Shown: piece by piece, positions 29,817 to 61,245 of the stretch
Layout of the letters: every line of letters starts with the position of its first letter
Numbering within the stretch: the first letter of the stretch is position 1
Assembly (NCBI GenBank): GCA_000004985.1
Contig: GG738883.1
Source of the DNA: Naegleria gruberi
Taxonomy: Eukaryota
Length of the DNA: 64,000 nt
Direction: 5' to 3' (one strand)
The notes under the pieces: model-generated
The model's input: the letters and a program-made list of their open reading frames with translations, nothing else
Databases searched by the model: none
What the model was told of the DNA's origin: nothing
Made by a program: the position numbers and the translations under genes

Positions 29817-32441
29817 ATGAACAATCGACAACTTCCCTCCAATTTTAACTTTTACGGGGAGACAACAACAGACTATCCCTCTGATTTTAATATGACAACA
29901 AATTTATTTGATGATTTTCTTGCTTCTTTAACTGAAACACATCTACTCACGGATAGTAATGTAAATACAAACAATAGCATGCTCCTTCCGCATAATGTAT
30001 CTTCTAATTTAATACCAACAACATCATCAACAAGTACATCATCATCGTCGACAATGTTGCCACCAATAACGGCACAAGATCTAACCGGTACTACATCTTC
30101 ACAAAACGATTCAAATTCTGGTCAACTTGTTACAAACGTTTCTCTAATTACAAATAATCAAAAATATCCATCAGGAATAATTCAAGATAATGTACATTTG
30201 TTTTTTGGTTCTCATGGTTCTTCAGATACATATAAATTGGAAGTTCAGGTAACGCCAATTGTTGATCAAATGATAATGAGTAATCAAACTAAACTTGTCA
30301 TACAAGTTAAAAGAGAAAATAGCAAGGAACTTTTGAAGAAGGCTCGTTGGGTATTGTCTTTGGAGAATAGAAAAGAAGAATGTATTTATCTCGTTCAAAA
30401 TAATAATTTTCCAAAAACAAGAAGAGGAAGAGGTATTAACGAATCTTGTTTATTTGCCTTCTCTCTGGAAAATTTACAAAATGTTCCTGAACAATTATTT
30501 CCAACATTTAAATTTCAATTTTACTCCAAGCTCATACCAGGAAGTTTCCCAACAGATTCGTTCACTGTTCCACCATCAACACAACTTTCTAGGCCAGAAG
30601 TATCCACATCCTCATCATCACCACCTACACAACAAATCATTTCCAATCCACCTATGATAGTAATGGAACAACCAAAACCTGTTATGAATAATATTCTCTT
30701 CCCAGCTTCTGCCTTTAATCAGTCAACCCAATCCTTTGATCCTATGTCACTTTTTAACTCTCTTACCGAACAATCCCAACAACAATCAGATGATCTAATT
30801 TATCAATCTTCAGGAAAAAAGAGGAAAAAGATAGAAATCTTTGAACCAAAGTTATTCTCAATCAATCCAATGTATGGAACTATTGGAAGCACTGTTGTTT
30901 TATTGGGCAATTTTAACGTTTTAAGTGAAAAAGCAGTCAAGGTCCATTTTGATCAAGTTGTTGTTGAGCATCCACATGCCGTTACGCCAAATACTATTGT
31001 TTGTACTGCTCCTGATCATGAAGATGGTAACTCTTTTGTTCAAGTTGTAGAAGAATTTGAACACTTCCAAATGAAAACTGAGCACAAAATTTTCAGATAT
31101 ATTTCACAAAGCTTCCAAATGGGTATCAACCAACTCGTCTTTAATTCAGGCCCAAGACCTTACCAATCACCACCTTCATATCTTTCTCCTGGAGCTCCAA
31201 ACACTGACTCATCTTCTAGTTCTAACTCTTATAACTCAGGGCAAATGTTTTATGATAGTCTTAGACAAAATAATTTACATAGAGCAGCTTATGATGGTGA
31301 TTTGAGGGCTGTTGTTTCAATTCTTGAAAGCAGATCATGTGATCCATTTGAATTGGACAATTTTAAGAGAAGTCCATTCCACATTGCTTGTGCTATGGGT
31401 CACTTATCAGTTGTTCAAGCATTATGGACTCATATTGTTGATATTCTTCCTGAAGAAGAGGATGAAGATGAAGACGTACTTGCATCTGTTCTCTTATATC
31501 AACAGGATAGTTTCTCAATGACACCTCTCGATTTAGCTTCAAAGATTATAGACGACAATGAACATGATGTTATTTTCTTCCTTAAAGACAAATTAGTCAC
31601 CTATCCAAACTTGAATACAAAGCTAGGTAATGGTGATCTAGTTCTAGTAGAAAACGAGGTACACGAACGTAAACTAAATCAATTGAAGCACTTATTCCCA
31701 TCCTTTGACGATTTCTTCATTAGAGAAATTCTTGAGAGATGTGGTTGGAGTGAGACAGAAGCTGCTGCTTTGGTTTTATGCCAACAATTTGAATCCAATA
31801 TCTGTGCCAAATCATCTATGACTTCTAAGGAAGTTTTCATGGTAATAGAGAAACAAAAGGCCATCAATCAACTCATTGATTTTATGAACATGTCTCCCTT
31901 CTCAACACTTTTAGCAAACAAACTTTCTAGATTCTTTGATCCAGAGAAGCATTTCGAAAATTATGAAAAGGAAATCAAACACAAGTTTTCTAAAAAGATT
32001 TACAAGATTGAAAACATTGTTCATCCCGAGCTTCAACTCAGATTCAGCCAATATATCAATCAAGAAGAAAACCCACTGATATTTATGACATTCCACGGAA
32101 CAAGTGAACAAAATGTTTCTAGTATTAAGGAACACGGTCTCTTGGTTCCTGGAAAGGGTAATGATATTAGACCAGTTAATGGTAGCGAGTATGGATTGGG
32201 TATTTACACATCATTCTCGGGTACTTCATCAATTGAGTATTGTTATGGTGGTAACAAGATGTTTGTTTGTGCTGTGTGCGTTAGGGACAAGATTGTTATA
32301 AGTGAAGATGGAAATGTTCTTGTTGTTTTTGATGAAAGATCAGTATTGCCTTGCTGGCTGATAACATTTGAAAACCGAGTTGAAAATGTTCAAGAACCTG
32401 TCAATATGAACTATAACAATAACCTTCTCAGACAAATCTAA
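29817..32441 (+). CDS. multidomain PARP-family protein (874 aa), gene A. An S/T-rich N-terminal region is followed by IPT/TIG, ankyrin repeats, a CUE domain and a C-terminal PARP catalytic-like domain.
   Basis: TIG domain: PKLFSINPMYGTIGSTVVLLGNF...IVCTAPDHEDG. ANK: LHRAAYDGDLRAVVSILE...SPFHIACAMGHLSVVQAL. CUE: LNQLKHLFPSFDDFFIREILERCGWSETEAAALVL. PARP-like: FHGTSEQNVSSIKEHGL...YGLGIYTSFSGTSSIEY...VLVVFDE. Confidence 0.75.
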   Translation: MNNRQLPSNFNFYGETTTDYPSDFNMTTNLFDDFLASLTETHLLTDSNVNTNNSMLLPHNVSSNLIPTTSSTSTSSSSTMLPPITAQDLTGTTSSQNDSNSGQLVTNVSLITNNQKYPSGIIQDNVHLFFGSHGSSDTYKLEVQVTPIVDQMIMSNQTKLVIQVKRENSKELLKKARWVLSLENRKEECIYLVQNNNFPKTRRGRGINESCLFAFSLENLQNVPEQLFPTFKFQFYSKLIPGSFPTDSFTVPPSTQLSRPEVSTSSSSPPTQQIISNPPMIVMEQPKPVMNNILFPASAFNQSTQSFDPMSLFNSLTEQSQQQSDDLIYQSSGKKRKKIEIFEPKLFSINPMYGTIGSTVVLLGNFNVLSEKAVKVHFDQVVVEHPHAVTPNTIVCTAPDHEDGNSFVQVVEEFEHFQMKTEHKIFRYISQSFQMGINQLVFNSGPRPYQSPPSYLSPGAPNTDSSSSSNSYNSGQMFYDSLRQNNLHRAAYDGDLRAVVSILESRSCDPFELDNFKRSPFHIACAMGHLSVVQALWTHIVDILPEEEDEDEDVLASVLLYQQDSFSMTPLDLASKIIDDNEHDVIFFLKDKLVTYPNLNTKLGNGDLVLVENEVHERKLNQLKHLFPSFDDFFIREILERCGWSETEAAALVLCQQFESNICAKSSMTSKEVFMVIEKQKAINQLIDFMNMSPFSTLLANKLSRFFDPEKHFENYEKEIKHKFSKKIYKIENIVHPELQLRFSQYINQEENPLIFMTFHGTSEQNVSSIKEHGLLVPGKGNDIRPVNGSEYGLGIYTSFSGTSSIEYCYGGNKMFVCAVCVRDKIVISEDGNVLVVFDERSVLPCWLITFENRVENVQEPVNMNYNNNLLRQI

Positions 32442-32770
32442 TTGTAAAATATAATTAAACAAAAGTTTATTCCATTGATCAATGGTTCATTTTCATAATA
32501 ATAATCAGTTGCTTCAGCTTTGTAATAAGCATACTTCATTTCCAATTGAATTTCGTCATTATCATCCCTTGTAGCATAGAGTTTAAATTGACCTTTGTAA
32601 CTACATTGTGGCACCTCTAACAGCTCCAAAGAGATTCATCACACCTGCACATTTAGAAACGAGTACCTTTGGTGATTATTTCTTTAAATTCTTTGGTGAG
32701 AACCTTCTGGCCGTTGCGTTCCATATTGGATAGTTCTAAATTTGATTGGTGGAATTAATTCTCCTCTTAA
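32438..32770 (-). pseudogene. 3' fragment (last ~110 codons) of a third paralog of the secreted Cys-rich (MACPF-like) family. It abuts and overlaps the stop codon of gene A.
   Basis: 32418..32670 matches 37226..37570 at >90% nucleotide identity, apart from a 95-bp indel. 32680..32760 matches 37843..37950 with deletions. The minus-strand reading ...LEVPQCSYKGQFKLYATRDDNDEIQLEMKYAYYKAEATDYYYENEP is homologous to the C-terminus of the 14278..15912 protein (...VYGCRSAAVRLFVSRNWQDEIQVSVVYSFIDD). Confidence 0.6.
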
Positions 32771-33119: not shown

Positions 33120-36100
33120 ATGGCAGATTTTCAGAAGGCGTTTTATGCTGCGAGAGACGGCAAAATTGATGAATTTAATAATTATTTTAATGAACAAGAT
33201 GTTAATAATAAATCACAGTATGGTCAAACCATGTTGTGGGTTGCTTGCTTCAACGGACATTTAGAAATTGTTAAATTATTATTATCATGTAAAACAATTG
33301 ATGTTAATTTGGGAGTAAGTATTTAATATTTAATGTAATTTTATATTTATAATATTAGAATGTAAGTATTTAATATTATTTTTATTTATATTTATAATAT
33401 TAGAGAGTAAGTATTTTAATATTTAATTTTATTTATAATATTAGGATGTAAGTATTTAATATTTAATTTTATTTATATATTTAATATTAGTCACCATTAT
33501 ACACTGCTTGCCAAAATGGACATTTAGAAATTGTTAAATTATTATTATCATGTAAAACAATTGATGTTAATTTGACTGTAAGTTTAATATTTAATGTAAT
33601 TTTATATTTATAATATTAGGATGTAAGTATTTAATATTTAATATTATTTATATTTATAATAATAGTATGTAAGCATTTTAATATTTAATATTATTTATAT
33701 TTATAATATTAGAGAGTAAGTATTTAATATTTAATTTAATTTTATACTTTTAATTAGGATGTAAGTTAAATATTAAATATTATTTATATTTATAATATTA
33801 GTATGTAAGTATTTTAATATTAATTTTATTTATATATATAATATTAGTCACCATTATACATTGCTTGCCGATATGGATATTTAGAAATTATTAAACAATT
33901 ACTTCAACATCCAAATATTGAAATAGATAGCACATTGTCAGTGAATGGAATTAATATTCAAACAATTAAAAGTAACATGGAAAAAGAACAACAACAAATA
34001 TTAAAAGAACAATTAGAACAAGAAGAGTTTAAACAACTAGAAGTGGAAAGATTAGAAAGAGACAGAATTAAAAAATTAGAAATGGAAAGATTAGAAAGAG
34101 AAAGAATTGAAAAGGAACATTTACTAAAAATAGAAAGAGAAAGATTAGAACGAAAAGAATTGGAGAAAAAACAACCATTCATAATCACATCTGAAACATT
34201 TTCAAAATTATGTTCACTCAACCAACAAATTGATAATAATAGAAGAAAAATTGAAAAACAATTTGAATCAATTCAATCATTTTTTTCTTCTATTCAAATT
34301 AAGAAAGAATTTGAAGATGAATATTTAACAATTTGTGATAATTTAAATAATTGTTGTAATTTAATTGACAAATTAACAAGTAATAATTATAATATTGAAA
34401 ATAACGAACATTTGTTAAATATTAATAATTTGATGAATAATATTAGAACTATATTGGAATTTATTAATAATCAAAAATACTTATTTAAATTACAATCTTA
34501 TTCAGAAGTATTAAAAGACAAATTACAATTATTTAATGAATTTAATTCTCAATTTATTAAACAAGAATTATTTGACAATATTGAAATGAGTGAACAATCT
34601 ATTAAGAATATAAAAAGTATTAATATAGTTCCAACTCATAATAAATTTAGAAATGAAACTAAAACAACATTACAACAAGTTACAAAACAATTATCAAATA
34701 TTGTTAACTCAATCAATAATTGTAATGAAATTGATTTGTCACAATTTTCAAATAATTTACAAAAAGCAATGGAATTATCAGAACAAGAAGAATTATATTT
34801 AAATAATATATTGTCAAATTGTAAAGTATTAATTTCAGACAATGATCAAATGAATATTTTACAATTATTTAATTTTTATCAAACACAAGAATTAAATTGT
34901 AAATTATTAATTCAAGAAACAATTCCATATATAATTGAAAAATATGAAATGTTACAAAATATTATAAATATTATGGATGATTATTCAAATTTATCAGAAC
35001 AATTTAAAACTATTCAAAGACAAAAAACAAAAATTACAAGAAATTTACATATTGTAAATCTAGATATTGAAGGATTAAAAGATGAATTGAAACATGTCAA
35101 TAATGACGATGAAATTAAAGATGAAATTCAAACTAAAGAAAAGAATTTAATTGAATTAAAATCTAATTTGAAGGAAAATATTCAAAAGTTAAATGAAATT
35201 AAAATGAAATTTCTTCAATTAAAAACAATTGGATTTGATATTAAATCAAACATGACAAGTGATTTATTATCTAATTTAAATATTAATGAAATGACACCTG
35301 AAATGTTTAAAGAAATTAAACCAATTCAAAATTGGAATGGAAATCATAATGTTTTTATTGGAATTGATTTAAATGATAAAAAACATATAATTAAACAATA
35401 TAATTTAAAAGATAAGAAATCAATTGAAGGTTTAGAAAAGGAATTGAAAATAACAAACAAATTAAAGCACGCAAATATTATTGAAATTGAAGGAATTTAC
35501 ACTGAAGCTGATAACAAACACAGTACCACTAATGTATTTATTGTAATGCCATATTATTCAAATGGAAATTTGAAAGAATTTATTCAAACTAAAAGAAATC
35601 ATCAAAGTAATACTTTAAATTTATTATTTTGGGAAAGAACATGGAGACAATTATTAATTGGAATTCAACATGTACATTCCAGAGGTGTTATTCATTGTGA
35701 TATAAAACCAGAGAATATATTTGTTGGTGATAAAGATGAATCAACAGAATATTATCCAATTATTTTAGGTGATTTTGATATTAGTTTAGATATAACAAGT
35801 AGAACAATGAATTTATTCACAAGAACAAGTGGAATTGCTGGTACATTAGATTATTTATCACCTGAACTAGTGAATGGAAAAACATCAGCAACATTTAGAT
35901 CTGACATGTTTGCATTTGGTAAAACAATTCAAAATTGTATGACAGATCAAGAATTGAAACAATTCAAATCATTGAATAATTTATGTGAAGAGTGTTTGAA
36001 TTCAGATGTAAATTTGAGACCATTTGCATCTGATGCACTTGCAAATGAATTCTTTATGAAAGAAACATTATTAGATGAAGTTAAAATTCAGAAACATGTT

Positions 36101-37113
36101 CAATTAATCGAAAATCAATCAAAAGAATTGAAAGATTATCACAATCAATTGAATGAATTTGAATTGAAAATGAAAAAAAATCATGAAAATTTGAAAACTG
36201 AAATTTTAAATCTAGAAAAGGAAAAGAAACAATTTTCAAATTCAAAGCAAAGGAAAACGAAGAAATTTCAAAGAAATTACAAAATTTGAAACAAAAAGAA
36301 ATTGAAATTGAGAAAATGGAAAAGGAAATTAAAGAATCAAAATCCAAACAATTAACAATATCACTTCCAGGTTATTGGAAAAGAAACACATTCCCAAGCT
36401 ATTCGAAAAGATATTACACTGTTGATGTTACACAATATTTAAAAGATACAATGCAAGAAATTATGAATGCATCCTGTAATTCTGCAACACTTGGATCTGG
36501 AAGAGATCAAGTATCAAGAATTATGTATTCTAAATTGATTGTTTCCAGTGTTTCAAGAATTGAAAATTCAACACTTTTCACTTCATTCAAATCAAGAATG
36601 AATCAGTTAATTTCATATCAAGATTCAATTAATTCACTCCAAGTTCAGACTGAAAATATTTCAAAAACATCAAAAACATTTGAATGGATGAAAACAATTG
36701 GATTGAATTCTAATATGAATGAAAAATATTTATGGCATGGAACAAAACCTGAATTTGTGAATACAATTGCAGAACATGGATTCGATGAAAGAGTTGCAAA
36801 TTTAAATGGATTATTTGGAGCAGGTATTTATTTTGCAGAATATTGTTCAAAGAGTGATCAATATTGTACGCCTGATCATTCCAATGAATTTACTCTATTA
36901 TTATGTAGAGTTGTAATGGGAAGACAAATTCATTTCACAAAACAAGTGATGAATAATCAGAGAAGACCACCTGAAATTTCAGGAAGTAATAATAGAGTTT
37001 ATGATAGTGTTATTGGTCAATCAAATACTTCAACTAATTCATATAGAGAATTCATTGTCTATGATAAATGTCAATGTTATCCTGAATTTATAATTAAATA
37101 CAAGAGACAATAA
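33120..37113 (+). CDS. gene B: ankyrin repeats + long coiled coil + Ser/Thr protein kinase domain + coiled coil + PARP catalytic domain. Exons are 33120..33314, 33491..33577 and 33848..36289, with introns 33315..33490 and 33578..33847. There is a single-base frame break near 36254-36257, after which the ORF continues to 37113.
   Basis: AAAAAAATG start. Exon-1 ANK: MLWVACFNGHLEIVKLLLSCKTIDVNLG|GTAAGT. Exon 2: SPLYTACQNGHLEIVKLLLSCKTIDVNLT. Exon 3: SPLYIACRYGYLEIIKQLL..., in frame with ORF 33935..36289. Kinase motifs: HCDIKPENIF, GDFDIS, GTLDYLSPE. PARP motifs: LWHGTKPEFV, GAGIYFAEY, YREFIVYD (an H-Y-E triad). Restoring one A in the A-run at 36254-36257 joins the kinase ORF to the PARP ORF through a continuous coiled coil (...SNSKQKENEEISKKLQNLKQKEIEIEKMEKE...). 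Confidence 0.7.
33315..33490 (+). repeat. intron 1 of gene B: a tandem array of about 4 mini-intron-like units of ~45 bp each (GTAAGTATTTAATATT...TTTATAATATTAG)
   Basis: Direct reading shows repeated GTAAGT...ATATTAG units separated by 3-4 nt. Confidence 0.8.
33578..33847 (+). repeat. intron 2 of gene B: a tandem array of about 6 mini-intron-like units of ~45 bp each. The flanking exons 2 and 3 are diverged duplicates of the exon-1 ankyrin cassette.
   Basis: As above. In addition, 33262..33314 and 33521..33577 are nearly identical at the nucleotide level. Confidence 0.8.
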
Positions 37114-37342
37114 GGAATCAATCAAAGAATTACCAATTTCACTCCCGATGTGAGAATTAGTTATAGAAACCTGTTGTAGAGATTACTACCATAAATCAGT
37201 AACTCTCAGGATCCGGACTATTGCAATAACCTTCTCAGACAACTCTAAATATAATTAAAACAAAAGTTTATTCCATTAAGTAAGGACATGAGCACTCATG
37301 TTTACAACAATACAACCACCTTCCTTTCTCTTTTCACTTACA

Positions 37343-38831
37343 TTACATGCTTTCCTCTTGGTAGACATAATTTGGTTCATTTTCATAATAATAATCAGTT
37401 GTTGCTTCAGATTTGTAATAAGCATACTTCATTTCCAATTGAATTTCGTCATTATCATCCCTTGTAGCATAGAGTTTAAATTGACCTTTGTAACTACATT
37501 GTGGCACCTCTAACAGCTCCAAAGAGATTCACCACACCTTGCACATTTAGAAACGAGTACCTTTGGTGTGCTACTTCTTCTAATCATGATATCTTTGTAA
37601 TAAGAATAGTGCATGCAGGTCTTTGACTTCCTGACTTGCAACGAATTCCATTCTTTCCAGCTCGGCAAATATTTTGTGAAAAATCTTGATATCCACATGG
37701 ACTTTGTTGTAAGAAAACTTTCAATAGAATTGGTTGAGATGTTTGTTTGGTTATCATATTTTCTATTCTTTGAATTCTTCTTTCCTTTTTAGCAACAGAT
37801 TTTTCCATGCACTTTTTGTAGGCGATTTTAAGATTTCTTCTTTGATGAGAACCGTCTGGCATTGCTTCCCATATTGGAATAGTTCTAAATTTGATTGGTG
37901 AAGGATTTTTCACAAAAGATGTAATTCTCCTCTTAATGTGTGAAATTTCTGGATTTCCTCCAATAATATCTCTGGCAGCAATCTTTGAATATTTCAAAAA
38001 AGTTGCTAGAATTGGGAGATTTTCAGTTGAGTTTGTTGATTGAATGAAGTTTTGCAGCATAACTAACAGCTTTCTCTCTCGAATAACAAGATCTGGTAAT
38101 ACTGGTTTGTCCAACAATTCCTCCATAATAAGTTTGAGTCATGACTCTTTCTCCAAAATACTTAATAACCATACTATAAACAGAATAAGAATATTTCGCT
38201 GGTAATCTGTGGAAATTTCTCTGAAATTCATCACTGAATGTTAAATTTCTATGACTTCCAACTGAATAATACATATATTTGGTATCAATGGAATGAATTA
38301 AAGTCTCAGATTTGAAAAGTTTGTGATAGGTTTGAGAAGCACTTTCAAAAGTATCTGAATATAATGTGGCCGTCAATGTGCTTGCATTAAAGTTATAGAA
38401 ATGATTGTAGAACCTTCTTGGACTTTTGAATTGTTTATCCTTTGTGTCCACAATTGGAGTTTCCAAAACTTTAACATAGATTTGAGAACTTGTAATTTAA
38501 CTTCATGATCCAAAACTGAGTATCCATAACCTGAAATGATGTTGGACAAATCAACGGCTGGAGCTGAAGAAACTTTCTTGGATTTTGTTAGAGAATTCAA
38601 TGCCATTTCTTCCACTTTTATCGAGCAAACATGTTTCATTTGTTTAATTCTCTTCTTAATCTTTGGACATGTCTTAATGAGAGCATTATTGAGCATATCA
38701 TACCAATTAATAAGGAGCATGGTGCAAGATTTAATTAAACTCCCTGGTGGAAAGATTCTAGTCAGGAACAATGAACTTTGTTTGTACCTTTGTAAATTTA
38801 AAAATAAAAAATTCCAACTGTAAAAAAACAA
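37343..38831 (-). pseudogene. second paralog of the secreted Cys-rich (MACPF-like) family. It is colinear with the 14278..15912 protein but split into 5 reading-frame segments. It has no signal-peptide exon, so it is either a pseudogene or an intact gene obscured by homopolymer miscalls.
   Basis: Segment by segment, the ORFs 38831-38373, 38466-38023, 38126-37584 and 37698-37510 and the terminal exon to 37343 align to the intact paralog. Matching blocks include SGYGYSVLDHEVKLQVL, FYNHFYNFNASTLTATLYSDT, YYGGIVGQTSI, FLKYSKIAARDIIGGNPEIS, IMIRRSSTPKVLVSKC and DEIQLEMKYAYY. Each of the four frame changes is repaired by +/-1 nt in a 3-4 nt A or T run (near 38485, 38045, 37600 and 37545) without any length change in the alignment. 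Confidence 0.6.
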
Positions 38832-39571: not shown

Positions 39572-40873
39572 TTAAATGAAAATACTATCATGGAATATTT
39601 TGATTAAACGATTAGCAACCTCATCACAAATGTTATTTCCAGAAATATCAAAACTGGTCAATTGTTTCAAATCACTAAAATAAAGAGCTCCTTCATCACT
39701 AATACTATTGCAATTAATATCAAGATTGGTCAACCATTTCATATCGCCTATGTGTCTAGCTCCTTCATCTCCAAGATTATTTCTATGAATGGAGAGATGA
39801 GCTAGTTTATCCAATCCACTAACATATTGAGATCCTTGTTGACCAATATTATTAATAGAAATATCAAGAAAAGTTAATAATTTCAATTCTCTTATAAATT
39901 TAACTCCAATAGCACTAATACTATTAGAAGAGATACTAAGTTTGGTCAATTTTGTCAAACCACTTAGATAAGTGGCTCCTTCATCACCAATTCTACAACT
40001 ATTAATGTTAAGTTTGGTCAACTGTTTCATTTCACCTATATATTTTGCTCCTCCAGGACCAAAAGAAATACCAAATATATCAAGATCGGTCACTTGTGGC
40101 AGTTCATTTATAAATTTTACTCCTTCTTCATGAATTCCATTCTTAGCAATAGCTAAACTTGTTAAGTGTTTTAATTTACCAACATGAAATGCTCCTTTAT
40201 CACCAATATTAATGTTATTAACATTTAAACTGGTCAATTGTTTCATTTTAATGATATCTTCAAATGCAATATTTCCAATATCATTTCCGTTAATATTAAG
40301 ACTAGTCAACTTCCTCATATTGGTAATATATTTGAGACAATTCATACCAAATCTATTTTTACTTATAACAAGATTTGTTAATTGTTCCAATTTACTTATA
40401 TGCATAACTCCATAATTACCAATACTATTATCAGAAACATTAAGATAAGTCAACTGTTTCAATTTACTTATTGGTTCCACTATTGAATCAGTTATCAAAC
40501 TCTTAGATATGTCAAGACTAATCAATTGATCCAATGAAATTAAATATTTAGACATTTCTACAAAATTAATTTTTGAAATTCGAAGATCAGTTAATGATTT
40601 CATCATGATCAACTTGTTGTAAGTTTCAGAGTTTCCCCATCTAGTCATCGTCAGAGTTTTAATATTTTGTAAAAATTGACCAGCTATTCTGTCCATTCTT
40701 GCACCTTTACATTTCAAGTAAAGATGATGACATGTCGATAACACCACATTGAACCACTGTTTTGAAACCAATGAACAATTCATGACAATAAATTTAAAAT
40801 CATCATGAAAGGATAAAATTTCATAAATTACATCATCAGGAAATGTTTCTACTACTGGGAGTTGTTGAGACAT
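39572..40873 (-). CDS. F-box-like + RNI-type leucine-rich-repeat protein (about 433 aa from MSQQLPVVETFPDD...)
   Basis: The ATG at 40873 sits in an ATAAAAATG context. FPDDVIYEILSF...NCSLVSKQWFNVVL resembles the 7439..7927 N-terminus. There are at least 14 LRRs of the 24-28-aa ribonuclease-inhibitor type (LTSLNINGNDIGNIAFEDI...). Confidence 0.7.
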   Translation of the reverse strand: MSQQLPVVETFPDDVIYEILSFHDDFKFIVMNCSLVSKQWFNVVLSTCHHLYLKCKGARMDRIAGQFLQNIKTLTMTRWGNSETYNKLIMMKSLTDLRISKINFVEMSKYLISLDQLISLDISKSLITDSIVEPISKLKQLTYLNVSDNSIGNYGVMHISKLEQLTNLVISKNRFGMNCLKYITNMRKLTSLNINGNDIGNIAFEDIIKMKQLTSLNVNNINIGDKGAFHVGKLKHLTSLAIAKNGIHEEGVKFINELPQVTDLDIFGISFGPGGAKYIGEMKQLTKLNINSCRIGDEGATYLSGLTKLTKLSISSNSISAIGVKFIRELKLLTFLDISINNIGQQGSQYVSGLDKLAHLSIHRNNLGDEGARHIGDMKWLTNLDINCNSISDEGALYFSDLKQLTSFDISGNNICDEVANRLIKIFHDSIFI

Positions 40874-41252: not shown

Positions 41253-43713
41253 ATGCTCCCTCAGACAAATAGTGATGATGATTCGCTGATTGATGATGAT
41301 CAACTTGCATCAATTTACGAAGCAATCTATCCATCAAATCAAATTAATGTAGTTGACAATAATAATAATCAAAGTGTATTAATTGATGATATAATGATTG
41401 TTGATCCTTCTTCGGAATCAACATTTAGGATCTATTTGAATGAATTTATATTTACAGAATATGAATATGTTGAAGTTACTCGTAATTATGAAAACCAAAA
41501 GGAATACAGAAAAACAAATGTCAATGCATGTGGTTGGTTGAAGAAGAATACTAAGAATTCTACTCCATACTTGGATAATAAGACGTATCAAATACCATTA
41601 GATCCTAATGGTGACTACTTTATTGAGAAACTGTTGCTAGTACAGATTAGCCCTGGTAAGATTCCAAAGAGATACTCTCTTGAGAGAACTATTCCTGAAT
41701 TTAGAGTCGATGCAAGTGGTAATCGTTATATTGGAGCAAAATTGAGGAAAATCAAAGCATTTAATGCTAATCAAGAAACTGTGAACAGAATTTTGAGGAT
41801 TTCCAAACATATACAGGATAAATTGATCCAAGAATGGCCTGAGAATTTGAGAGAAGATGTATTTTTATTACCATTGGTTTCCTCCTCAACTGGATCATCA
41901 GATATTTCACTGTTCAATGGTATTCCTTACTTGGATGTTTTGGAACAATTCTTCTCTAACAATAGTTTACTTATCCAAGATGCTGAGTTTGAGAAAAGGT
42001 TGAAAAACCCAAAAGGTTTATTAGTCAGATGTGAGCAAACATTTGAATACTCAATTTTAGGTAAGTATTTTACGCACAATTTTACCAATAGTTTCACCAG
42101 TTGGTCATTATCAAGGAAAATTGCTTGGCAGAAAACTCACCAAAGAATTGGTAAAGTGCTTCATTAGTAACCCACACTTAATAAGTGCCAAGAATGCTGA
42201 CATTGAAATTGATCCAAGTTATGTTTCATTCCCCAGATATGGACTTGAACTTGTTGAACAATTAAGAGAGCAATTTTACATGGAGTTAGATGTATTAATC
42301 CAGATGAATCACTATCAAAAAATGTTAGATTTTTATATTATCAAATTTCCTGGTTACCGTTTTCTTAAGGATCCATTATTGATTAGGGTAGCCCATACCT
42401 TCCCTTCCTATGCACACAAAATGAATTTTGGTCGTGGTCACTATGAGAGATTAGAGTTTATGGGAGATTCTGTGGTTAATCTTACTGCTTGTGTAGAACT
42501 GATCAAATCTTGCAGAAACGATGATTCAAAGAAGGGAGATTGGAATGCTGGATTCACTGTATTGATTGCCAACGATTCAATTACCAGAGAAGCAGAAAAG
42601 TTACAAATTTCTGAACATTTCCTCAATAGTTCTGATAAGTTTTCAAAAAAGGCACAGTCCAATGTTATTGAGTCTATCATTGGAGCATTGTACATGGCTG
42701 AAGGAATAAGAGGTGCTCGATCTTTTGCAAAGGAATTACTTATACCAACTAGCATTGACTTTAAATGTCTAAAGAAATTTTCTAGCTCCTTCCCAAGCGT
42801 TTCAAATGAGGGAGAGCAATGGAAAAGAGATGTTGAGCATATGAAGTTATTTATTGGACAAGATATTATAGAAAAATTGCAAGACATTTTGCATTATAGA
42901 TTTAGGGATGTTGGATTGATACAAGAGGCTCTAATTAGCTGCAGTTACAATAACACATTTATGGATCTAAGAAATGTACCCATGACTGAAAAGATTCAAA
43001 AATTTTTGAAAAAGAGAAATGATAGCAAAATAGTTGGCCTTTATCATTTGTACAATAATGAACAACTCAAATTATTGGGATCAGCACTACTCAAGTTTAT
43101 GGTCACTGAATTTGTTTACAAGAGATTTACAGAAGCACAGCCAAGCAAATTAACTTTGCTGGCTCACCAAATAATCTCAAAGCAAGGCAAAGTATTCTCA
43201 GCTATCCATGAAAAGTTTAGATTTGATCAATTCTTAATGAAGACTGATATCGACGCTGATTATTCAGAAATTCAGCAATCCTATGACTGTTTTACTGCCC
43301 TTTTGGGAGCTATTTTCATGGATCAAGATTGTTTATTTTATAAGTTTGAATTTGCAACAATTTCTAACACCTATACAGAAGAGCTTGCCAATTCTACTGA
43401 TCCTTGCTCATCTTATTTCCTCAAAAGACATGATGTTACTCCTGACAAGTTCTTCTATTCATTCTTGTTCCCTTATATCGAACAGTTTGAGTTGAGCCCT
43501 TATACCATTGAGCCTCCAAAGAAGCACACACTTCAACATTTGATCCAAGTCAACCACAAAAGCGTTCCATCTTATGTAAAGAATCAGGACGTATCCCAAG
43601 AGTTTTGTGTTACTATTATGGTAAATGGACAAGAGTTCAGTAAGGGTGTTTCTTCTAAATCTTTTGCAGAAGCAGAAGAACAAGCAATAGAAATGGGCTT
43701 GAAAATGTTTTAG
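41253..43713 (+). CDS. Dicer/Drosha-like class-3 RNase III (about 806 aa): two RNase III domains plus a C-terminal dsRBD, with no helicase or PAZ. Exons are 41253..42060 and 42101..43713, separated by a 40-nt intron.
   Basis: The RNase III signature is HYERLEFMGDSVV. The second domain is LLGSALLKFMVTEFVY...DCFTALLGAIFMDQD. The dsRBD is KKHTLQHLIQVNHKSVPSYV...EAEEQAIEMGLKMF. Removing GTAAGTATTTTACGCACAATTTTACCAATAGTTTCACCAG at 42061..42100 joins the two ORF-track ORFs in frame. Confidence 0.75.
42061..42100 (+). other. 40-nt spliceosomal intron (GTAAGT...CACCAG)
   Basis: This is the only canonical GT..AG choice that joins the 41253 ORF (phase 1) to the 42121 ORF frame. Confidence 0.65.
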
Positions 43714-46525: not shown

Positions 46526-49093
46526 TTACCAATAGTCACCACAAGTACATTTTCCATCCTTAAAATGGTGGAACCGTGAGGCATCACGAATTATTATTTC
46601 ACAATTTCTAACTGCTGACAACAATTTAGTGGCATTATGGCAATCTCCACAAACCCTCAAGTTCGTTGTTAAATGAATTGTTGATGTATTTGGCTGTTTG
46701 TTGAAAGCATATGCCATGGCTATCTTTTCAGAATGTTTGTATAGTAAATCCAGTTTTTCTGCATCAGTGTCAACATTTTTAATCACCCAGCTTAGGTCTG
46801 GTTGATAACCTGCCTTAATGAGATCAGCTACCATTTTTTTTAGTTCTTTCTCTATCATCTTTATCTCTGGATGCTCCTTTTCTTCACAAACAAAAGAATG
46901 CATTTTCCCTTCGATACAAACTTGCGTCATACTTGGTAACTTTTTAAATCCACCAAATTCCATCAACTCTTTAACCCTTTTGGCGTCTTCGTACATGTCT
47001 TGAGAAGCATAAATGTTAGCCATTAAAATGAAGTGAGATGATTCCACTTCATTTCGTTCAATAAGCATATTGAAAAGTTTCTCTGCTAAGGTGACATTGT
47101 TGAATTTTCTACAGACCCCAAATAAAGTGGACACAGTAACAACGTCAGGACTGATACAAGACCCTAGCAATTTCTCAGCCTCTTTAATATTACCTTTTCT
47201 TGCCAATGCATCGATCAAACATGCCAAATGTATGTTTGATGGTTTGATTGAATATTTGGACTCCATGTGGTTGTATATTTCTTTTGCTTCGTCCACCATA
47301 CCACAATGGCCACATGCATGCAACACACATGTTAGAGTATGCTCATTTGGTTTAATATTTTCTTTGCTCATTTGGTTCAAAAGTTCAATAGCCTTCAATC
47401 CCATTCCATGTATTGCATAAGCATTTATGATACAGGTCCACGAAACAACATCTTTGTTTGGTACTGAGAGGAAAACTTCATGTGCACTTGTTAAATCTCC
47501 ACATTTTGCATACATATTAATGAGTGCATTAAACAAGTTGTGGTCTCTGATTCTTAGCTCACTAATATTTCTGTGAATTATTTTTCCAAAATCCAAATTT
47601 CCAAATTCAGAGCATACAGAAAGAAGCAAAATAAGGGTTGGTACATCTGGAACCAAGTTGTTATTGATCATATCTTCGTACAGGGAGATAGCTTCTGGCA
47701 TTTTCTTAAGATTGGCCCATAACTTTATCATACATCCATAATGTGCTGTAATTCTTGCTATCTTGAATAAGGTGTTCATATTATCGAACAAGAAACATGC
47801 TTCTTGTTCCATAGAATGATTTGCAAAAAATGTTAACATAACCGTCATGGTTACATCATTCGGTTGGGTATACTTTGGCATGATCTTGAAATAAAGTAAT
47901 AATCTTTTTGTATCTCCATTTTGGGAGCATCCCTTAAGAAATGAGTTCCATGTTATTACATCTTTGAATTCCATTTGGTTGAATATTGATTCTGCATGTT
48001 CTACTTTACCACTCTTCAAAAACGAATCCAAAAGAACATTGAAAACAAAAACAGAGGTAACGCCTTCACTAATAATAATACTTTCTATTTCTTCCAACCT
48101 ACCCTCTTCACAATACGTTGGTATGATTAGTGTCCAAGTTGTATCGTCCAGTTGTTTCGTTTTAAGCATCTTCATAAACAGTTCTATTGCTGTTTGAGTT
48201 TCCCCACATTTCGAAAACATGTTAATGAGATTATTCTGAACAGTAATACTCCTGTATAGTTCATAATTTTTCATAATTGTTTCGTGCAATTTTTTCCCAT
48301 TAACTAGAGATCGAGTAATAGCACATCCTTTCAACAAAAGAATAAATGTTACTTCGTTTGGAATGAGTTCTTTCTCTTGTCTGTAAATATTCATAGCTTC
48401 CTCACTTTCTCCATTCTCAATCAATGCCTTTATCAGACAATTAAAGTGAATAATATCTGGAGAAACGCCATATTCTTTCATTGAAAAATAAATTTCTTTG
48501 GCCTTTTCGCTCATGTTTGAATTGGCAAGAGAATTCAATAGTGAAGAAAATGTTTTGGGTTCTATTGGAATCTGTTTGCTTTTGACATATTTTAACAATT
48601 CAAATATGGTGGAAATATGTCCTGTATTGCAAAATCCTCTAATAATATAATTCCATGTTGGTGGATTTACTTTCTTCTTATATTCTTCTTGTAATGAAAG
48701 CATAATTGTTGAGAGATCATCCCATAATGAGGTACTTCTGTCACTGCTTTCGATTTTGCAATAACTTATTAATGAAATAATAACAAAATAATTTAAAAGT
48801 GATTTCTCCTTCAATAAATAATAGGCTTTAAAAGAATCATCCAACGACAACAATCTTTTTGATATGAGTAAGTTGGCATCAAAGGAATTTGGTTTCTGGA
48901 AAAAATGTTTCGTTGCTGAATCAACTTTTCCTTCGGCTATTAAATTTCGAACCACTCGATAATCAAAAACAGGAGAGTACGTATGGAAACTATGAAATTT
49001 ATTTGTATCACTAAACTTCAGAGTTTCCATATAAGATTTCTTGCACTTAAGGTTCTTGAAAAGAAAATTTTCAGCACAAACCAGCACACGCAT
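46526..49093 (-). CDS. pentatricopeptide-repeat protein with a C-terminal DYW cytidine-deaminase domain (855 aa); a putative organellar C-to-U RNA-editing factor
   Basis: AAAAAAATG start. There are more than 15 PPR-like 35-aa repeats. The C-terminus reads HSEKIAMAYAF...LRVCGDCHNATKLLSAVRNCEIIIRDASRFHHFKDGKCTCGDYW*, carrying the HxE and CxDCH zinc motifs and the terminal DYW. Confidence 0.85.
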   Translation of the reverse strand: MRVLVCAENFLFKNLKCKKSYMETLKFSDTNKFHSFHTYSPVFDYRVVRNLIAEGKVDSATKHFFQKPNSFDANLLISKRLLSLDDSFKAYYLLKEKSLLNYFVIISLISYCKIESSDRSTSLWDDLSTIMLSLQEEYKKKVNPPTWNYIIRGFCNTGHISTIFELLKYVKSKQIPIEPKTFSSLLNSLANSNMSEKAKEIYFSMKEYGVSPDIIHFNCLIKALIENGESEEAMNIYRQEKELIPNEVTFILLLKGCAITRSLVNGKKLHETIMKNYELYRSITVQNNLINMFSKCGETQTAIELFMKMLKTKQLDDTTWTLIIPTYCEEGRLEEIESIIISEGVTSVFVFNVLLDSFLKSGKVEHAESIFNQMEFKDVITWNSFLKGCSQNGDTKRLLLYFKIMPKYTQPNDVTMTVMLTFFANHSMEQEACFLFDNMNTLFKIARITAHYGCMIKLWANLKKMPEAISLYEDMINNNLVPDVPTLILLLSVCSEFGNLDFGKIIHRNISELRIRDHNLFNALINMYAKCGDLTSAHEVFLSVPNKDVVSWTCIINAYAIHGMGLKAIELLNQMSKENIKPNEHTLTCVLHACGHCGMVDEAKEIYNHMESKYSIKPSNIHLACLIDALARKGNIKEAEKLLGSCISPDVVTVSTLFGVCRKFNNVTLAEKLFNMLIERNEVESSHFILMANIYASQDMYEDAKRVKELMEFGGFKKLPSMTQVCIEGKMHSFVCEEKEHPEIKMIEKELKKMVADLIKAGYQPDLSWVIKNVDTDAEKLDLLYKHSEKIAMAYAFNKQPNTSTIHLTTNLRVCGDCHNATKLLSAVRNCEIIIRDASRFHHFKDGKCTCGDYW

Positions 49094-56128: not shown

Positions 56129-59100
56129 TTATAATTTAACTCTCTGAAATCTTCTTTCTGTATCCATCATTACATTTTCAATAACAGTTACCATACTATC
56201 AAATAAATTAAGTGGTATATAATCATGAGTAATTTGTTCAGTTTCGTCTGAGAATATTAATTTAGACATGGCATGAATTTGACTTTGTGTAATATTGAGT
56301 GGTGAAGTTGATGATTCAGATATGAATGTGTTGAATATTTCCTTTGCTATTCTCCTTCTCTCTCTCACTCTATATTCTGTCTTGTATGTAAATTCAACCT
56401 TTTCCCAGAATAGTATATTTTGAGAAGATTGTTCAGTTGAGCAGTAATGTTTAAATTGAGTTCGTAAATCATCTCTTTCAAGTGTTCGTTTTAAAGATGA
56501 TTGAGAAAGATATCTAATCTCTCTCAATTTCAAATCATATTGTAATAAAAGATGATGTTGATATGGTATCAGAGTAACATCTGTACTTCCATTCAGAATC
56601 ATTAAATCTCTTAATAAAGCTATAGCACATTCCAATCTTAATTGTCTATTCTTAATGAGATAGGCAATTATAATAGTATAACTAGCTTCAAATATTTTAA
56701 TTTCATCAAAATCAATACTAGATGTTGAACTAGAATGATTACTGTGAGTAGAAACTGCTTTCATAGAATCATCTGAAATCTTTTCAGATAAAGATGGTGG
56801 ACTAGATGGTGCAAGGAAGAGATTGATTTTCTGTTGAACTAACATGGTCAAATCCTTATCAGATTGAGATGGATTATATTCTGAAATGAGACAATGCTCT
56901 TTAGAATCTTCAATCCATTTCACACATTCGTCTAATTTTTCAAAATTTAATCTATTACTAGCTGGAAGATAAACAACAAGATATTCAATACTTGTGTTAT
57001 AAATCTTGTACGTTTTGAAAATGTACTCGGAAAATCTGTGTGGATCAATACCATCACATAATTTGAATCTTTCATCGGATTCACTAATAATTTGAATAAT
57101 ATGTGTCACTTGCTTGTTTTTCATTTCTTTTGTAATGCTCTTATGTAAGTGTAATAAATTTGAATCACAAAATAGTACAGATTCAAATAGACATGTTGTA
57201 AAACTTGGATTTTCCCAATCAACCTTTTCACATACAGTATATAAATGATTAAATAATGAATAGGTATTAATATTTGTCAATTTAGGTGATATCTTTTTCC
57301 AATCTTGACTAATTTGTTGTTGATCCTTCAATGAAATAAAGTTATATGAACATTCTAGAGTTTTCAATTCATTTAACTTTTTAGTAGAAGAAGCACTATC
57401 AATTTGAATGTTTAAACTTGTTAAACAATTTCTATTCAACTTCAATTCATGTAAATATCTAAAATCTAACCATCTATTTCCTGCAACATGTTCAAAATCA
57501 TGAGTGGTAATACCACAACCACTCAAATTTAAAGTTTCAATATTTTTCAATTGGAATAAACCATCAAATACTTGATTATTCCAATGAATGTCATTATAAC
57601 TTAAATCTAAAACGTATAAAGTTTCAGAGAATAATTCAATACCTTTCAAACATTTAATTCTATTGAAAGATAAATTAATAGTTTCAATACGTTTCAAGAG
57701 AGATAATTCTTGAATACTATTTGCATCTAAAAACATTTTCTCAAAGACCAATTCATTATGGCATAGACATAGATTTTTCAAATATCTCATTCCAGAGAAT
57801 AATTTAGAAGGTAACTTTTTCAAACAATTATAACTCAAATCTAAATGTTTCAATTGAACCATTCCAGTAAGTGTATTATCTTGAATGGATTCTAAATAAT
57901 TGTGAGACAAGTCCAAATAGGTAATAGTAGAATACAATTTTTCAAGCATGCTATTGCTGTTAATAAATCTTAGATTGTTATGACTTAGTTTTAGTGTTTC
58001 AATATTGGATGTAATGTAATCGGTTGGAATTTGTGGTAATTCTTTCAGTCTATTATGAGAAATATCTAAAAAATCAACACTTGATAAACTCATTATCGAT
58101 TGAATAGAACCCTTAATAAAACAATTCTTCATTTCCAACCTTCTCAAGAATGAAAGACCTCTAATAGTTGAAGGTAAATCATCTTCTTGAGTTTCTAATC
58201 CAAATGGTCCATTATTATTCATTCTCAATAATTTAAGTTTTGGAAATCTTCTTAACCATTCTATTGGAAAGTTAACTAAACCACAACTACTAATATCAAT
58301 TTCTGTAATGCTATGATGAAAATGTTCAGAAACAAGGAAACTAGAAACTGTTTGTTTTCGTTGTAATAACAATTCCTTTTCAATATTAATCATATCATCA
58401 TCAGTCTTTCTAATAACTCTTGACATTCTTGGAGAAACTTTTGAAATTGAACCATTAGTTGATGATGATGATGATTGATTTGATGCATTATTATTTGGTG
58501 ATGAAATTGAATTATTTGCTTCATTATTTGGATCAATAATTGTAAATATTTGTGATAAATTCAATGTCGACCTATTACTAATATTAATTAATTGATGAGT
58601 TGATGTTAAATTTGGAGCAGATTTTGAAAGAGTGTCATTATTTGAATGATGGAATTGACCTGAAATGATTACACTTGTACTCGTCGTATTGAGTGACATG
58701 TTTAAAGAAAAATCCGATTCATGACTAAATAAACTAGGATTTGCACTCAAATCTAAAGTTTCCAATAAACGTAAATCATCTAAACACTGTGGATAACCTC
58801 CATAAAGTCTATTATTACTTAAATTCAAGTAAATTAAAGAATTTGCAAGTGGTTTGTGTTGTTTGCTTGATATTTTCTCATTATGAAACTCTGCTGTTAA
58901 ATTACGTGAAGATTCAGATGATTTCTTTTTTAAACCACCCTTCTTGAAAGAAATACCTAAAAAGTTCTCAATTTGATTGAATGAATAATCTAAATGTGTT
59001 AATTGTTTCATCTTTCTCAAAGGTTCACTAAATTGTGTAAATAAATTGTGAGATAAATTTAGAATTTTTAAACTTTTCATCTTGTTAATTTTCTCTGGAA

Positions 59101-59281
59101 CTTGATCCAAACTATTTTGTGATAAATTGAGAGAAAGTAAATGATTTCTCAAACTATCATCATCACAAATTATTTTAAATTGTTTCTTTGATATGTTACA
59201 ATTAATGAGTGAGAGATTTTTCAAGTAATTATTCAATTTTGAATGATGATTCCATTTACCAAATTGTGAATTTGATGCCAT
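56129..59281 (-). CDS. leucine-rich-repeat protein with a C-terminal RGS (regulator of G-protein signalling) domain (1050 aa)
   Basis: There are multiple LxxLxLxxN LRRs in two blocks. The RGS core reads FKHYCSTEQSSQNILFWEKVEFTYK...IHAMSKLIF...IPLNLFDSM. Confidence 0.7.
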   Translation of the reverse strand: MASNSQFGKWNHHSKLNNYLKNLSLINCNISKKQFKIICDDDSLRNHLLSLNLSQNSLDQVPEKINKMKSLKILNLSHNLFTQFSEPLRKMKQLTHLDYSFNQIENFLGISFKKGGLKKKSSESSRNLTAEFHNEKISSKQHKPLANSLIYLNLSNNRLYGGYPQCLDDLRLLETLDLSANPSLFSHESDFSLNMSLNTTSTSVIISGQFHHSNNDTLSKSAPNLTSTHQLINISNRSTLNLSQIFTIIDPNNEANNSISSPNNNASNQSSSSSTNGSISKVSPRMSRVIRKTDDDMINIEKELLLQRKQTVSSFLVSEHFHHSITEIDISSCGLVNFPIEWLRRFPKLKLLRMNNNGPFGLETQEDDLPSTIRGLSFLRRLEMKNCFIKGSIQSIMSLSSVDFLDISHNRLKELPQIPTDYITSNIETLKLSHNNLRFINSNSMLEKLYSTITYLDLSHNYLESIQDNTLTGMVQLKHLDLSYNCLKKLPSKLFSGMRYLKNLCLCHNELVFEKMFLDANSIQELSLLKRIETINLSFNRIKCLKGIELFSETLYVLDLSYNDIHWNNQVFDGLFQLKNIETLNLSGCGITTHDFEHVAGNRWLDFRYLHELKLNRNCLTSLNIQIDSASSTKKLNELKTLECSYNFISLKDQQQISQDWKKISPKLTNINTYSLFNHLYTVCEKVDWENPSFTTCLFESVLFCDSNLLHLHKSITKEMKNKQVTHIIQIISESDERFKLCDGIDPHRFSEYIFKTYKIYNTSIEYLVVYLPASNRLNFEKLDECVKWIEDSKEHCLISEYNPSQSDKDLTMLVQQKINLFLAPSSPPSLSEKISDDSMKAVSTHSNHSSSTSSIDFDEIKIFEASYTIIIAYLIKNRQLRLECAIALLRDLMILNGSTDVTLIPYQHHLLLQYDLKLREIRYLSQSSLKRTLERDDLRTQFKHYCSTEQSSQNILFWEKVEFTYKTEYRVRERRRIAKEIFNTFISESSTSPLNITQSQIHAMSKLIFSDETEQITHDYIPLNLFDSMVTVIENVMMDTERRFQRVKL

Positions 59282-59400
59282 ATTACTAAAAAAGTAAAAT
59301 TTAGAATGTAATGATGTTATTTGTAATGTTTCTAAAGTATTATAATCATTTTGTATCTATTATTAAATATTATTATTATTAAATATTATTACATATATTA

Positions 59401-61237: not shown

Positions 61238-61245
61238 CACCTGAT

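Follow-up and report, generated by a model that had tools for sequence, protein, structure and literature searches.

Introduction

Does gene B of Naegleria gruberi contain two introns filled with repeats, or ten very small introns that frame a series of one-codon exons? The gene lies in a 64,000-nt stretch of contig GG738883.1 (NCBI GenBank assembly GCA_000004985.1), which we analysed at its full length, call the window, and use for all positions given below. The window is compact, with 31.6% G+C, large open reading frames (ORFs) and few introns, and the product of gene B matches a public protein model (XP_002674588.1 / EFC41844.1, NAEGRDRAFT_70343, 'predicted protein [Naegleria gruberi]'). 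The original prediction for this locus, made from the letters alone, described an 'intron 1 (176 nt)' and an 'intron 2 (270 nt)', both built from head-to-tail copies of a ~45-bp unit that resembles a minimal intron, and it saw scope for recursive or alternative splicing among many equivalent sites.

Our analysis, which compares sequences and family models throughout, suggests a different answer. With a probability that we put at roughly 60%, the two arrays are ten ordinary U2-type GT-AG introns of 38-44 nt, four in the first array and six in the second, separated by eight exons of one codon each. If so, the two long introns are probably the wrong unit of description, as the constant 3-nt spacers between the units look exonic.

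Results

Anatomy of the two arrays

The 5' half of the locus can be parsed exactly, as follows (all features on the + strand; introns and microexons are candidates).

33120..33314: exon 1, with the ATG at 33120, 65 codons and the first ankyrin repeat, ending ...DVNLG; equal to the N-terminus of XP_002674588.1, with Pfam ankyrin matches
33315..33490: array 1, four mini-introns, all starting GTAAGT and ending TAG (exact parse, Tandem Repeats Finder and unit alignment)
33315-33358 (44 nt), 33362-33403 (42), 33407-33444 (38), 33448-33490 (43): units u1 to u4 of array 1
33359-33361 AAT (N), 33404-33406 AGA (R), 33445-33447 GAT (D): one-codon microexons of array 1
33491..33577: exon 2, 87 nt, 29 codons, SPLYTACQNGHLEIVKLLLSCKTIDVNLT, a duplicated ankyrin repeat
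33578..33847: array 2, six mini-introns (exact parse)
33578-33619 (42 nt), 33623-33665 (43), 33669-33712 (44, with a GTAAGC donor): units u5 to u7 of array 2
33716-33757 (42), 33761-33801 (41), 33805-33847 (43): units u8 to u10 of array 2
33620-33622 GAT (D), 33666-33668 TAT (Y), 33713-33715 AGA (R): first three microexons of array 2
33758-33760 GAT (D), 33802-33804 TAT (Y): last two microexons of array 2
33848..36289: exon 3, with the third ankyrin repeat, a long coiled coil, a protein kinase domain and a second coiled coil

The estimate of about four and about six units is borne out by the parse. Tandem Repeats Finder reports a period of 46-47 over 33315-33847 (11.9 copies) and, over 33583-33848, 5.8 copies with 81% matches (score 342). 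The unit itself had been given as GTAAGT...ATATTAG. Bodies of the form GTAAG(T/C)...TAG are indeed there, with one GTAAGC donor, one AATAG end and one AATTAG end as exceptions; what had been overlooked is that exactly 3 nt stand between each body and the next GTAAG. In order, these spacers read AAT, AGA, GAT in array 1 and GAT, TAT, AGA, GAT, TAT in array 2. Indels alter the length of the bodies (38-44 nt) while spacer length stays constant, and all 20 of the 20 splice sites are intact. The 16-mer GTAAGTATTTAATATT has five exact copies in the window, all within the arrays, and seven matches with up to two mismatches against 0.2 expected; the 64 kb contain seven instances of AG-NNN-GTAAGT, every one of them in the arrays, against 1.3 expected. 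The periodicity is not a chance product of AT-rich DNA.

The two arrays interrupt their ankyrin repeats at an equivalent position, in phase 0 and directly ahead of the S/T-P-L-Y codons with which helix 1 begins. Any pairing of donor and acceptor within an array keeps the reading frame, so that the sites could in principle be used sequentially or alternatively, and retention of any single unit brings an in-frame stop or a frameshift. Motifs that resemble branch points lie 8-25 nt upstream of the AG (TTTAAT/TATAAT-like, a likeness of motif only). RNA folding of the arrays gave z-scores of -1.9, -2.2 and -0.9, which is no marked structure, and with values of just -0.9 to -2.2 we rejected a fold that would bring the outer splice sites together.

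The original prediction also held that exon 2 is a near-exact copy of the 3' end of exon 1 and that an exon+intron cassette has been amplified, and both claims stood up. The two exons share 66 of 70 nt, including a perfect run of 57 nt, and appear as a repeat family of 79 nt at 91% identity and a spacing of 263 (D7); Tandem Repeats Finder reports the same higher-order period of 263 nt over 33255-33754 (1.9 copies, 89% matches, score 800). The outer units pair between the arrays (u1 with u5 at 94%, u4 with u10 at 93%), units followed by the same spacer are more alike (u2 and u7, AGA, 89%; u6 and u9, TAT, 89%), and the order u5-[u6]-u7-u8-[u9]-u10 of array 2 corresponds to u1-u2-u3-u4 of array 1. 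The history of the N. gruberi arrays looks like one of DNA duplication.

Units as probable introns, spacers as probable exons

Five lines of evidence bear on the status of the units: size, maintenance of splice sites, base composition, protein geometry and the scores of family models. Introns that join ORFs elsewhere in the window measure 31, 41, 41, 43, 44 and 53 nt, which agrees with the earlier statement that introns of about 40 nt occur here, and the unit bodies are, as had been predicted, of a size that this genome uses. Several of these introns, including those at 12035-12075 (-) and 42061-42091 (+), share the start GTAAGTATTT with the array units. When the ten N. gruberi bodies are aligned, 8 of the 9 splice-site columns are invariant against 15 of the 36 interior columns (Fisher p=0.013). 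G+C amounts to 3/332 (0.9%) in the intron interiors and to 5/24 (21%) in the spacers (p=4.5e-5), the exons having 22-29%.

The geometry of the protein points in the same direction. The first inter-repeat loop of gene B, which is free of introns, has seven residues from D-V-N to T-M-L-W, and an intron-free relative (P0004) has seven loop residues at every repeat. Counted from D-x-N to S/T-PLY, removal of whole arrays leaves two and two residues in the other two loops of gene B, and inclusion of the microexons gives five and seven; the ankyrin periods become 32 and 34 residues with the microexons and 29 and 29 without. With both sets of codons the Ank_2 score is 119.6 bits, against a cut-off of 27.3. 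The Pfam scores of the six versions, in bits, are these.

No microexon codons: Ank_2 108.4, Ank_4 51.2, Ank_5 58.6
Codons of array 1 alone: Ank_2 113.9, Ank_4 65.3, Ank_5 62.0
Codons of array 2 alone: Ank_2 113.9, Ank_4 60.5, Ank_5 66.0
Codons of both arrays: Ank_2 119.6, Ank_4 74.8, Ank_5 69.3
Poly-Ala control of the same length: Ank_2 104.2, Ank_4 46.3, Ank_5 56.2
Leu/Ile control of the same length: Ank_2 99.4, Ank_4 53.3, Ank_5 54.8

Since neither the alanine nor the leucine/isoleucine control brings such a gain, the rise reflects which residues are present (N, R, D, Y) and not length alone. A single-sequence AlphaFold2 (AF2) model (pLDDT 77) places residues 66-68 and 98-102 in inter-repeat loops, which is weak evidence. 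Absence of stop codons among the spacers is not significant given the base composition, and we dropped it as evidence. Taken together, the five lines are best read as indicating that the units are plausible introns and that the spacers are exonic.

Homologous loci

A comparison with related loci had been proposed in the original prediction, and it proved informative. Homologues are 31-34% identical to gene B, in the case of P0003 over the whole coiled-coil and kinase region. P0003 is encoded by an environmental contig, L001 (ERZ27315067), which has at least five bodies of 42-45 nt (GTAAGTAATTTGAATTGAAATGAAGTTGATTGCATTTGATAG) with the spacers TGG, CAA, CGA and GTT; the array is followed by ACT CCA TTG TAT, the TPLY (TPLYAAC) of the last ankyrin repeat. 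A second ankyrin-type member, P0244, came from an exhaustive HMMER search and lies on another environmental contig, L004 (ERZ27237200), which reads ...GAGTAG-CTT-(44-nt body)-AGA-(44-nt body)-ACA CCA TTA TAT, at least 2.6 units with the spacers CTT and AGA, again before TPLYAAC.

In all three homologues the arrays thus stand at the same phase-0 boundary before S/T-P-L-Y. Unit sequences of N. gruberi, L001 and L004 are mutually unalignable, and those of L001 and L004 are not of low complexity. Over the 17 units of the three loci, 17/17 start GTAAG (16 of them GTAAGT) and 17/17 end AG (16 of them TAG); bodies range from 38 to 45 nt, and 14/14 spacers are exactly 3 nt long. The spacer codons, none of them a stop, would encode N R D D Y R D Y in N. 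gruberi, W Q R V in L001 and L R in L004. The branch-point-like motifs of L001 and L004 are TTTGAT/TTTGAG-like, with similar ones in the ORF-joining introns of the window, again by motif likeness only.

Other members of the family have SNase, NHL or RCC1 N-termini in place of the ankyrin repeats; in one of them, a Naegleria fowleri paralogue with an SNase N-terminus (L005), there is a single 86-nt intron and no array was found. A metagenome scan returned two unrelated kinases only, both without arrays; word-indexed profiles of the whole exon 3 product or of the kinase region were dominated by coiled-coil and generic kinase words and missed P0003. When 2.9 million viral contigs were scanned with a generic pattern, the matches were ordinary coding tandem repeats, and no new array appeared. 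One match, on the minus strand of the last 300 nt of L019 (IMG/VR GVMAG-M-3300024502-1_000001), consists of at least eight perfect 42-nt repeats (GTAAGTCCGCTCGTGTATCACGTAAAAGACGTTCAGTAGCAC) and reads as a coding tandem repeat for a basic peptide in a giant-virus bin, that is, as a chance match to the pattern and not as introns.

Divergence of bodies and spacers

Bodies and spacers differ sharply in how they vary. Pairwise diversity (pi) is 0.12 in the interiors and 0.54 in the spacers of N. gruberi, and 0.115 and 0.83 in those of L001; in both, no other of the 46 three-column windows varies as much as the spacer. Body identity within an array is 80-98%. Among units 1-4 of L001, 6 of at least 10 changes fall into 3 of 45 columns (p=1.5e-5): differences among the four bodies are confined to 4 of 42 columns, and there is hardly any likeness among the four spacers. 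The L004 units agree at 43/44 body positions and at 0/3 spacer positions (p=1e-3). The contrast has p=0.03 in N. gruberi and p=1.2e-7 when the three loci are combined. Control repeats that fit the same pattern, taken from viral contigs, have spacers that are identical from unit to unit.

Plain tandem duplication would predict identical spacers, and as judged from these alignments it fails to explain the contrast. Nor, on the same comparison, could mutation and selection turn over about 2.5 of 3 spacer positions while the bodies of L001 and L004 diverge by 2-5%. We favour a separate homogenisation of the bodies, by short-tract conversion or template switching, with the loop codons held by selection, which would imply that the codons are translated. 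A simple minisatellite fits poorly: all parts of its unit should diverge together, and instead the spacers are the most variable part. An introner or transposon origin was rejected, for want of dispersed copies, terminal repeats and target duplications within the 64-kb window: no copies of the array unit lie outside the arrays in the window, nor in L001 or L004, and no terminal inverted repeats or target-site duplications were seen at the arrays, where neighbouring spacers differ.

The remainder of gene B and its surroundings

Downstream of the arrays, exon 3 aligns over its full length with P0003, has a Pkinase match of 104.5 bits in Pfam and ends, as annotated, with the TGA at 36287-36289. 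The next ORF and a pair of direct repeats complete the locus.

36286..37113, + strand: PARP catalytic-domain ORF, in a frame that differs from that of exon 3 (Pfam PARP, 86.2 bits)
32425..32685 (left copy) and 37215-37575 (right copy, with 89 nt extra), a direct repeat for which strand is not applicable: family D5, bracketing gene B

Very probably the PARP ORF is the true C-terminus of gene B, lying beyond a 1-nt frame break near 36245, because the longer relatives are all fusions of coiled coil, kinase, coiled coil and PARP with the same order of motifs (...PxYW...LGxGRDQ...YLWHGT...GAGIYFA...). Kinase and PARP domains are both present at the locus, in that order, and are split by the break, at which one frame reads ...EKEKKQFSNSK and the other KENEEISKKLQNLKQKEIEIEK...SLPGYWKRN; this suggests a 1-nt indel, which may be an error in sequencing or a genuine frameshift of this strain. 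The ORFs of 2.4 kb and 0.8 kb are otherwise intact.

The public model reads ...DVNLG-NRD-SPLY... and ...DVNLT-DYRDY-SPLY...: it splices out the ten mini-introns separately and keeps the eight 3-nt exons. It also cuts out 34617-34997 (+), 381 nt that are in frame and open (127 codons) and that align with conserved residues kept in P0003. This stretch is probably a mis-predicted intron, and the model was probably made ab initio, without transcript support.

The core of the D5 repeat (152 nt, 96% identity, spacing 4893) lies in each case just downstream of an ORF with a PARP domain (the ORFs end at 32441 and 37113), a layout that points to a segmental duplication in this region, with PARP-encoding genes involved. 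Upstream, the neighbouring gene at 29817-32441 (+) encodes TIG/IPT, ankyrin, CUE and PARP catalytic domains in a single ORF of 874 aa, so that with gene B there are two adjacent ankyrin/PARP genes.

Other features of the window and of L004

The window also encodes a DYW-type PPR protein and MACPF, LRR-RGS, HSP90 and PARP proteins. The PPR gene (46526-49093, -) is intron-less and has an E motif and a DYW deaminase domain (Pfam DYW_deaminase, 134 bits); DYW-type PPR proteins are a plant-type family of organellar RNA-editing factors known in Naegleria. In the gene at ~60430-62115, introns of 44 and 43 nt (60913-60956 and 61080-61122, +) surround an exon of 123 nt, with a single intron of 210 nt as the alternative reading, so that nearest-pair and long-intron models compete there again. 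Tandem repeats with a 72-nt period occur at 7457-7717 (3.6 copies at 94%, inside a minus-strand ORF) and at 39625-39995 (5 copies at 61-73%); the minus-strand ORF at the latter encodes a leucine-rich-repeat protein with an F-box-like N-terminus, and the 72-nt repeats are thus 24-residue LRR units amplified in tandem. An AT-rich, microsatellite-like tract (TAT and TATTAAA repeats, 57-nt period) lies at 59338-59540, between or inside the minus-strand ORFs 56129-59281 and 59401-59973. At the left edge of the L004 array, a 52-nt perfect palindrome (2712-2763) derives from the 3' half of an intron unit, and beyond it, at 2440-2711 (-), lies a different ankyrin-like exon (TPLYVACKGGHVDILKYLF...).

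Discussion

Our data suggest a rough proposal for the expression and origin of this locus. Each mini-intron would be recognised by intron definition and removed singly, probably in sequence, because neighbouring splice sites overlap sterically. N-R-D and D-Y-R-D-Y would then stay in the messenger RNA (mRNA), where their residues would make up the hairpin loop that links one ankyrin repeat to the next; the unit count would then determine loop length. Such an mRNA would carry ...TTGGGAAATAGAGATTCACC... and ...TTGACTGATTATAGAGATTATTCACC..., with ATTGATGTTAATTTGGGAAATAGAGATTCACCATTATACACTGC and ATTGATGTTAATTTGACTGATTATAGAGATTATTCACCATTATACATTGC as diagnostic k-mers. The N. gruberi arrays may have grown by DNA-level tandem duplication of units made of one intron and one codon; a single duplication of 263 nt would have made the extra ankyrin repeat (exon 2) together with the second array, which may have gained two more units afterwards. 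As all pairings are in frame, and as every retained unit gives a stop or a frameshift, such arrays would be tolerated and easily changed.

Several observations weigh against the ten-intron reading. XP_002674588.1, itself probably ab initio, is the sole source in which microexons are included in a product, and since it also removes the dubious 381-nt stretch it is no proof of their inclusion; searches for exact products of gene B in transcript-derived contigs or in contigs of other strains gave no match. Introns of 86-92 nt also occur in Naegleria, which makes removal of the 176-nt and 270-nt arrays in one step conceivable, and there is a steric problem, as U1 would have to bind a site that overlaps the 3' splice site just before it. 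We found no documented precedent for up to five consecutive 3-nt exons flanked by introns of ~42 nt. Loop 2 reaches only five of the canonical seven residues, and the L001 and L004 microexon residues W, V and L are less loop-like. Bodies in L001 and L004 are 95-98% identical with unrelated spacers, which a simple duplication of intron plus codon leaves unexplained. The frame break before the PARP domain may mean some relaxed selection on gene B in this strain; the L001 contig ends inside its array, and the palindrome of L004 may reflect an inverted duplication or a chimeric metagenome contig.

The most obvious alternative, which we consider unlikely, is that each array is spliced in one step, as a 176-nt and a 270-nt intron, with silent internal GTAAGT and TAG motifs, a neutral minisatellite grown by slippage in AT-rich DNA, and microexons that are an artefact of the gene predictor. 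The junctions would then be ...AATTTGGGA|TCACCATTATACAC and ...AATTTGACT|TCACCATTATACAT, with the diagnostic k-mers ATTGATGTTAATTTGGGATCACCATTATACACTGC and ATTGATGTTAATTTGACTTCACCATTATACATTGC. Such removal is in frame and leaves a recognisable ankyrin domain (Ank_2 108 bits), the genus has the longer introns just mentioned, the N. gruberi unit is a slippage-prone, low-complexity A/T sequence, the public model shows ab initio signs such as its dubious 381-nt in-frame intron, and copying a unit of body plus 3 nt would pass on a constant 3-nt spacer automatically. Against this, the internal splice sites are conserved above the level of the interiors (p=0.013), and the spacers are exon-like in composition (p=4.5e-5) and evolve unlike the bodies in all three loci (combined p=1.2e-7), whereas ordinary tandem repeats that fit the pattern have identical spacers. 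One-step splicing would leave two loop residues where the family has seven, and the real spacer residues raise the ankyrin scores while controls of the same length do not. Finally, two homologues have arrays with 3-nt spacers at this very codon boundary, and their units are neither related to those of gene B nor of low complexity.

It is also conceivable, with still less likelihood, that an intron body was copied exactly into positions between loop codons that already existed, through reverse splicing, reverse transcription and recombination or through repair templated on excised intron RNA. The spacer excess of L001 (p=1.5e-5) and the L004 units, with bodies at 43/44 and spacers at 0/3 (p=1e-3), speak for such insertion, as do the slowness of point mutation, even under positive selection, relative to a turnover of about 2.5 of 3 spacer positions and the fact that only an RNA-level process naturally copies an intron at its exact GT...AG boundaries. 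Insertion should be indifferent to spacing, yet 14/14 spacers measure 3 nt; the junctions share no visible proto-splice-site consensus; each spacer type in N. gruberi stays linked to a body subtype and follows the 263-nt duplication, as DNA duplication would predict; and homogenisation of bodies alone, together with purifying selection, fits the same data with no new mechanism. Highly improbable, in our judgement, is that the arrays are a by-product of decay or assembly, gene B being a degenerating duplicate or the periodicity an artefact. The frame break near 36245 between kinase and PARP, the 96%-identical direct repeat that flanks the gene, the L001 contig that ends in its array and the 52-nt palindrome at the array edge of L004 would fit this, but the 2.4-kb and 0.8-kb ORFs are otherwise intact, as are 20/20 splice sites in N. 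gruberi, and the same architecture appears with different sequences in three independent assemblies. An assembly artefact, which the original prediction had named as a possible refutation, is thus unlikely, given that two of these assemblies are independent environmental ones. In the 2010 JGI assembly, arrays of 176-270 nt would also have been short enough to fall within a single Sanger read, which counts against an artefact.

The ten-intron reading, if correct, has several consequences. With the microexons spliced in, gene B would have the densest intron packing and the smallest serial exons (five of 3 nt) known to us, and would offer a test of the limits of intron definition and of the steric rules for neighbouring spliceosomes in a culturable, tractable protist. 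It would be a clear and datable case of intron multiplication by duplication, with ten introns where the ancestor presumably had one, and the decoupling of bodies and codons in three species bears on how introns are gained and homogenised. Loci of this kind are likely to be mishandled by gene predictors and RNA-seq aligners. A bolder claim, which we regard as doubtful at present, is that arrays of mini-introns and one-codon exons are a conserved, evolvable module of Naegleria-like amoebae that builds and varies ankyrin loops, the bodies being copied or kept alike with exact GT...AG boundaries, apart from the codons. If this were true, the arrays would be the footprint of intron-precise copying or homogenising (by reverse splicing, or by repair templated on excised introns) and a directly observable case of intron multiplication, and each array would allow 2^(n-1) in-frame splice variants (8 x 32 here), a possible source of variation in the length and sequence of the loops.

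None of the known systems that we compared appears to unite minimal-intron units, constant one-codon exons, placement in the loops of a protein repeat and recurrence at orthologous sites with turned-over units. A description of this architecture was not found in the literature that we searched, coverage of which was incomplete; the gene model itself is public. Among the systems considered, human introns are said to have arisen from tandem arrays in which each unit carries a 5' and a 3' splice site, as Zhuo, Madden, Elela and Chabot reportedly described in PNAS in 2007. Such an array reportedly also provides numerous equivalent donors and acceptors, from which new or longer introns can arise. 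In those cases, however, the repeats are reportedly located within, or turn into, a single alternatively spliced intron, without constant one-codon exons, without a link to protein-repeat loops and without recurrence at orthologous sites, and their units are not the standard minimal intron of the organism. Recursive splicing, as at the ratchet points of Drosophila Ubx and of long vertebrate introns, similarly lets a long region be removed stepwise through internal splice sites, with AG and GT juxtaposed around an exon of zero length, so that nothing remains. In gene B, by contrast, 3 nt stand between AG and GT and are apparently kept and translated. The recursive splicing that had been envisaged for the locus does not apply in the strict sense, because AG and GTAAG are 3 nt apart at 14/14 internal junctions, AG|GT is never juxtaposed and no 5' splice site is regenerated.

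Microexons of 3 nt are known from Drosophila homothorax (micro-Ex8; PMC7392893), cytohesin-1 (PMC6314551), RPS24 (PMC11162997) and plants (PMC8831610). They share with gene B the use of a single codon as an in-frame exon, which changes a surface loop by one residue, but they are isolated, with long flanking introns and enhancers outside the exon, whereas gene B would have up to five in series, with mutually copied introns of ~42 nt on both sides, in a protist whose introns are of a size suited to intron definition. In the Rogers model of intron gain by tandem genomic duplication, for which there are Drosophila cases (PMC2891723), a DNA-level duplication likewise adds introns with the frame preserved; there, an exonic segment containing AGGT is duplicated to give one new intron, whereas in gene B a whole intron plus a codon would have been duplicated, to 4-6 units. 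Introners and introner-like elements (PMC3609843, PMC4457414) also exist as near-identical intron copies within a genome, implying recent multiplication. They are, however, dispersed over many unrelated genes, longer, and marked by stable structure or transposon features, in contrast to the copies in gene B, which are, within the 64-kb window, strictly local, in tandem and without marked structure. Consecutive introns from tandem duplication of exon+intron units, dozens of them, are found in SNHG14 (SNORD115/116; PMC11608373), where the units are kilobases long, the host is non-coding and the functional product lies within the intron; in gene B the units measure 41-47 nt, the host codes for protein, and the payload would be the codon between the introns.

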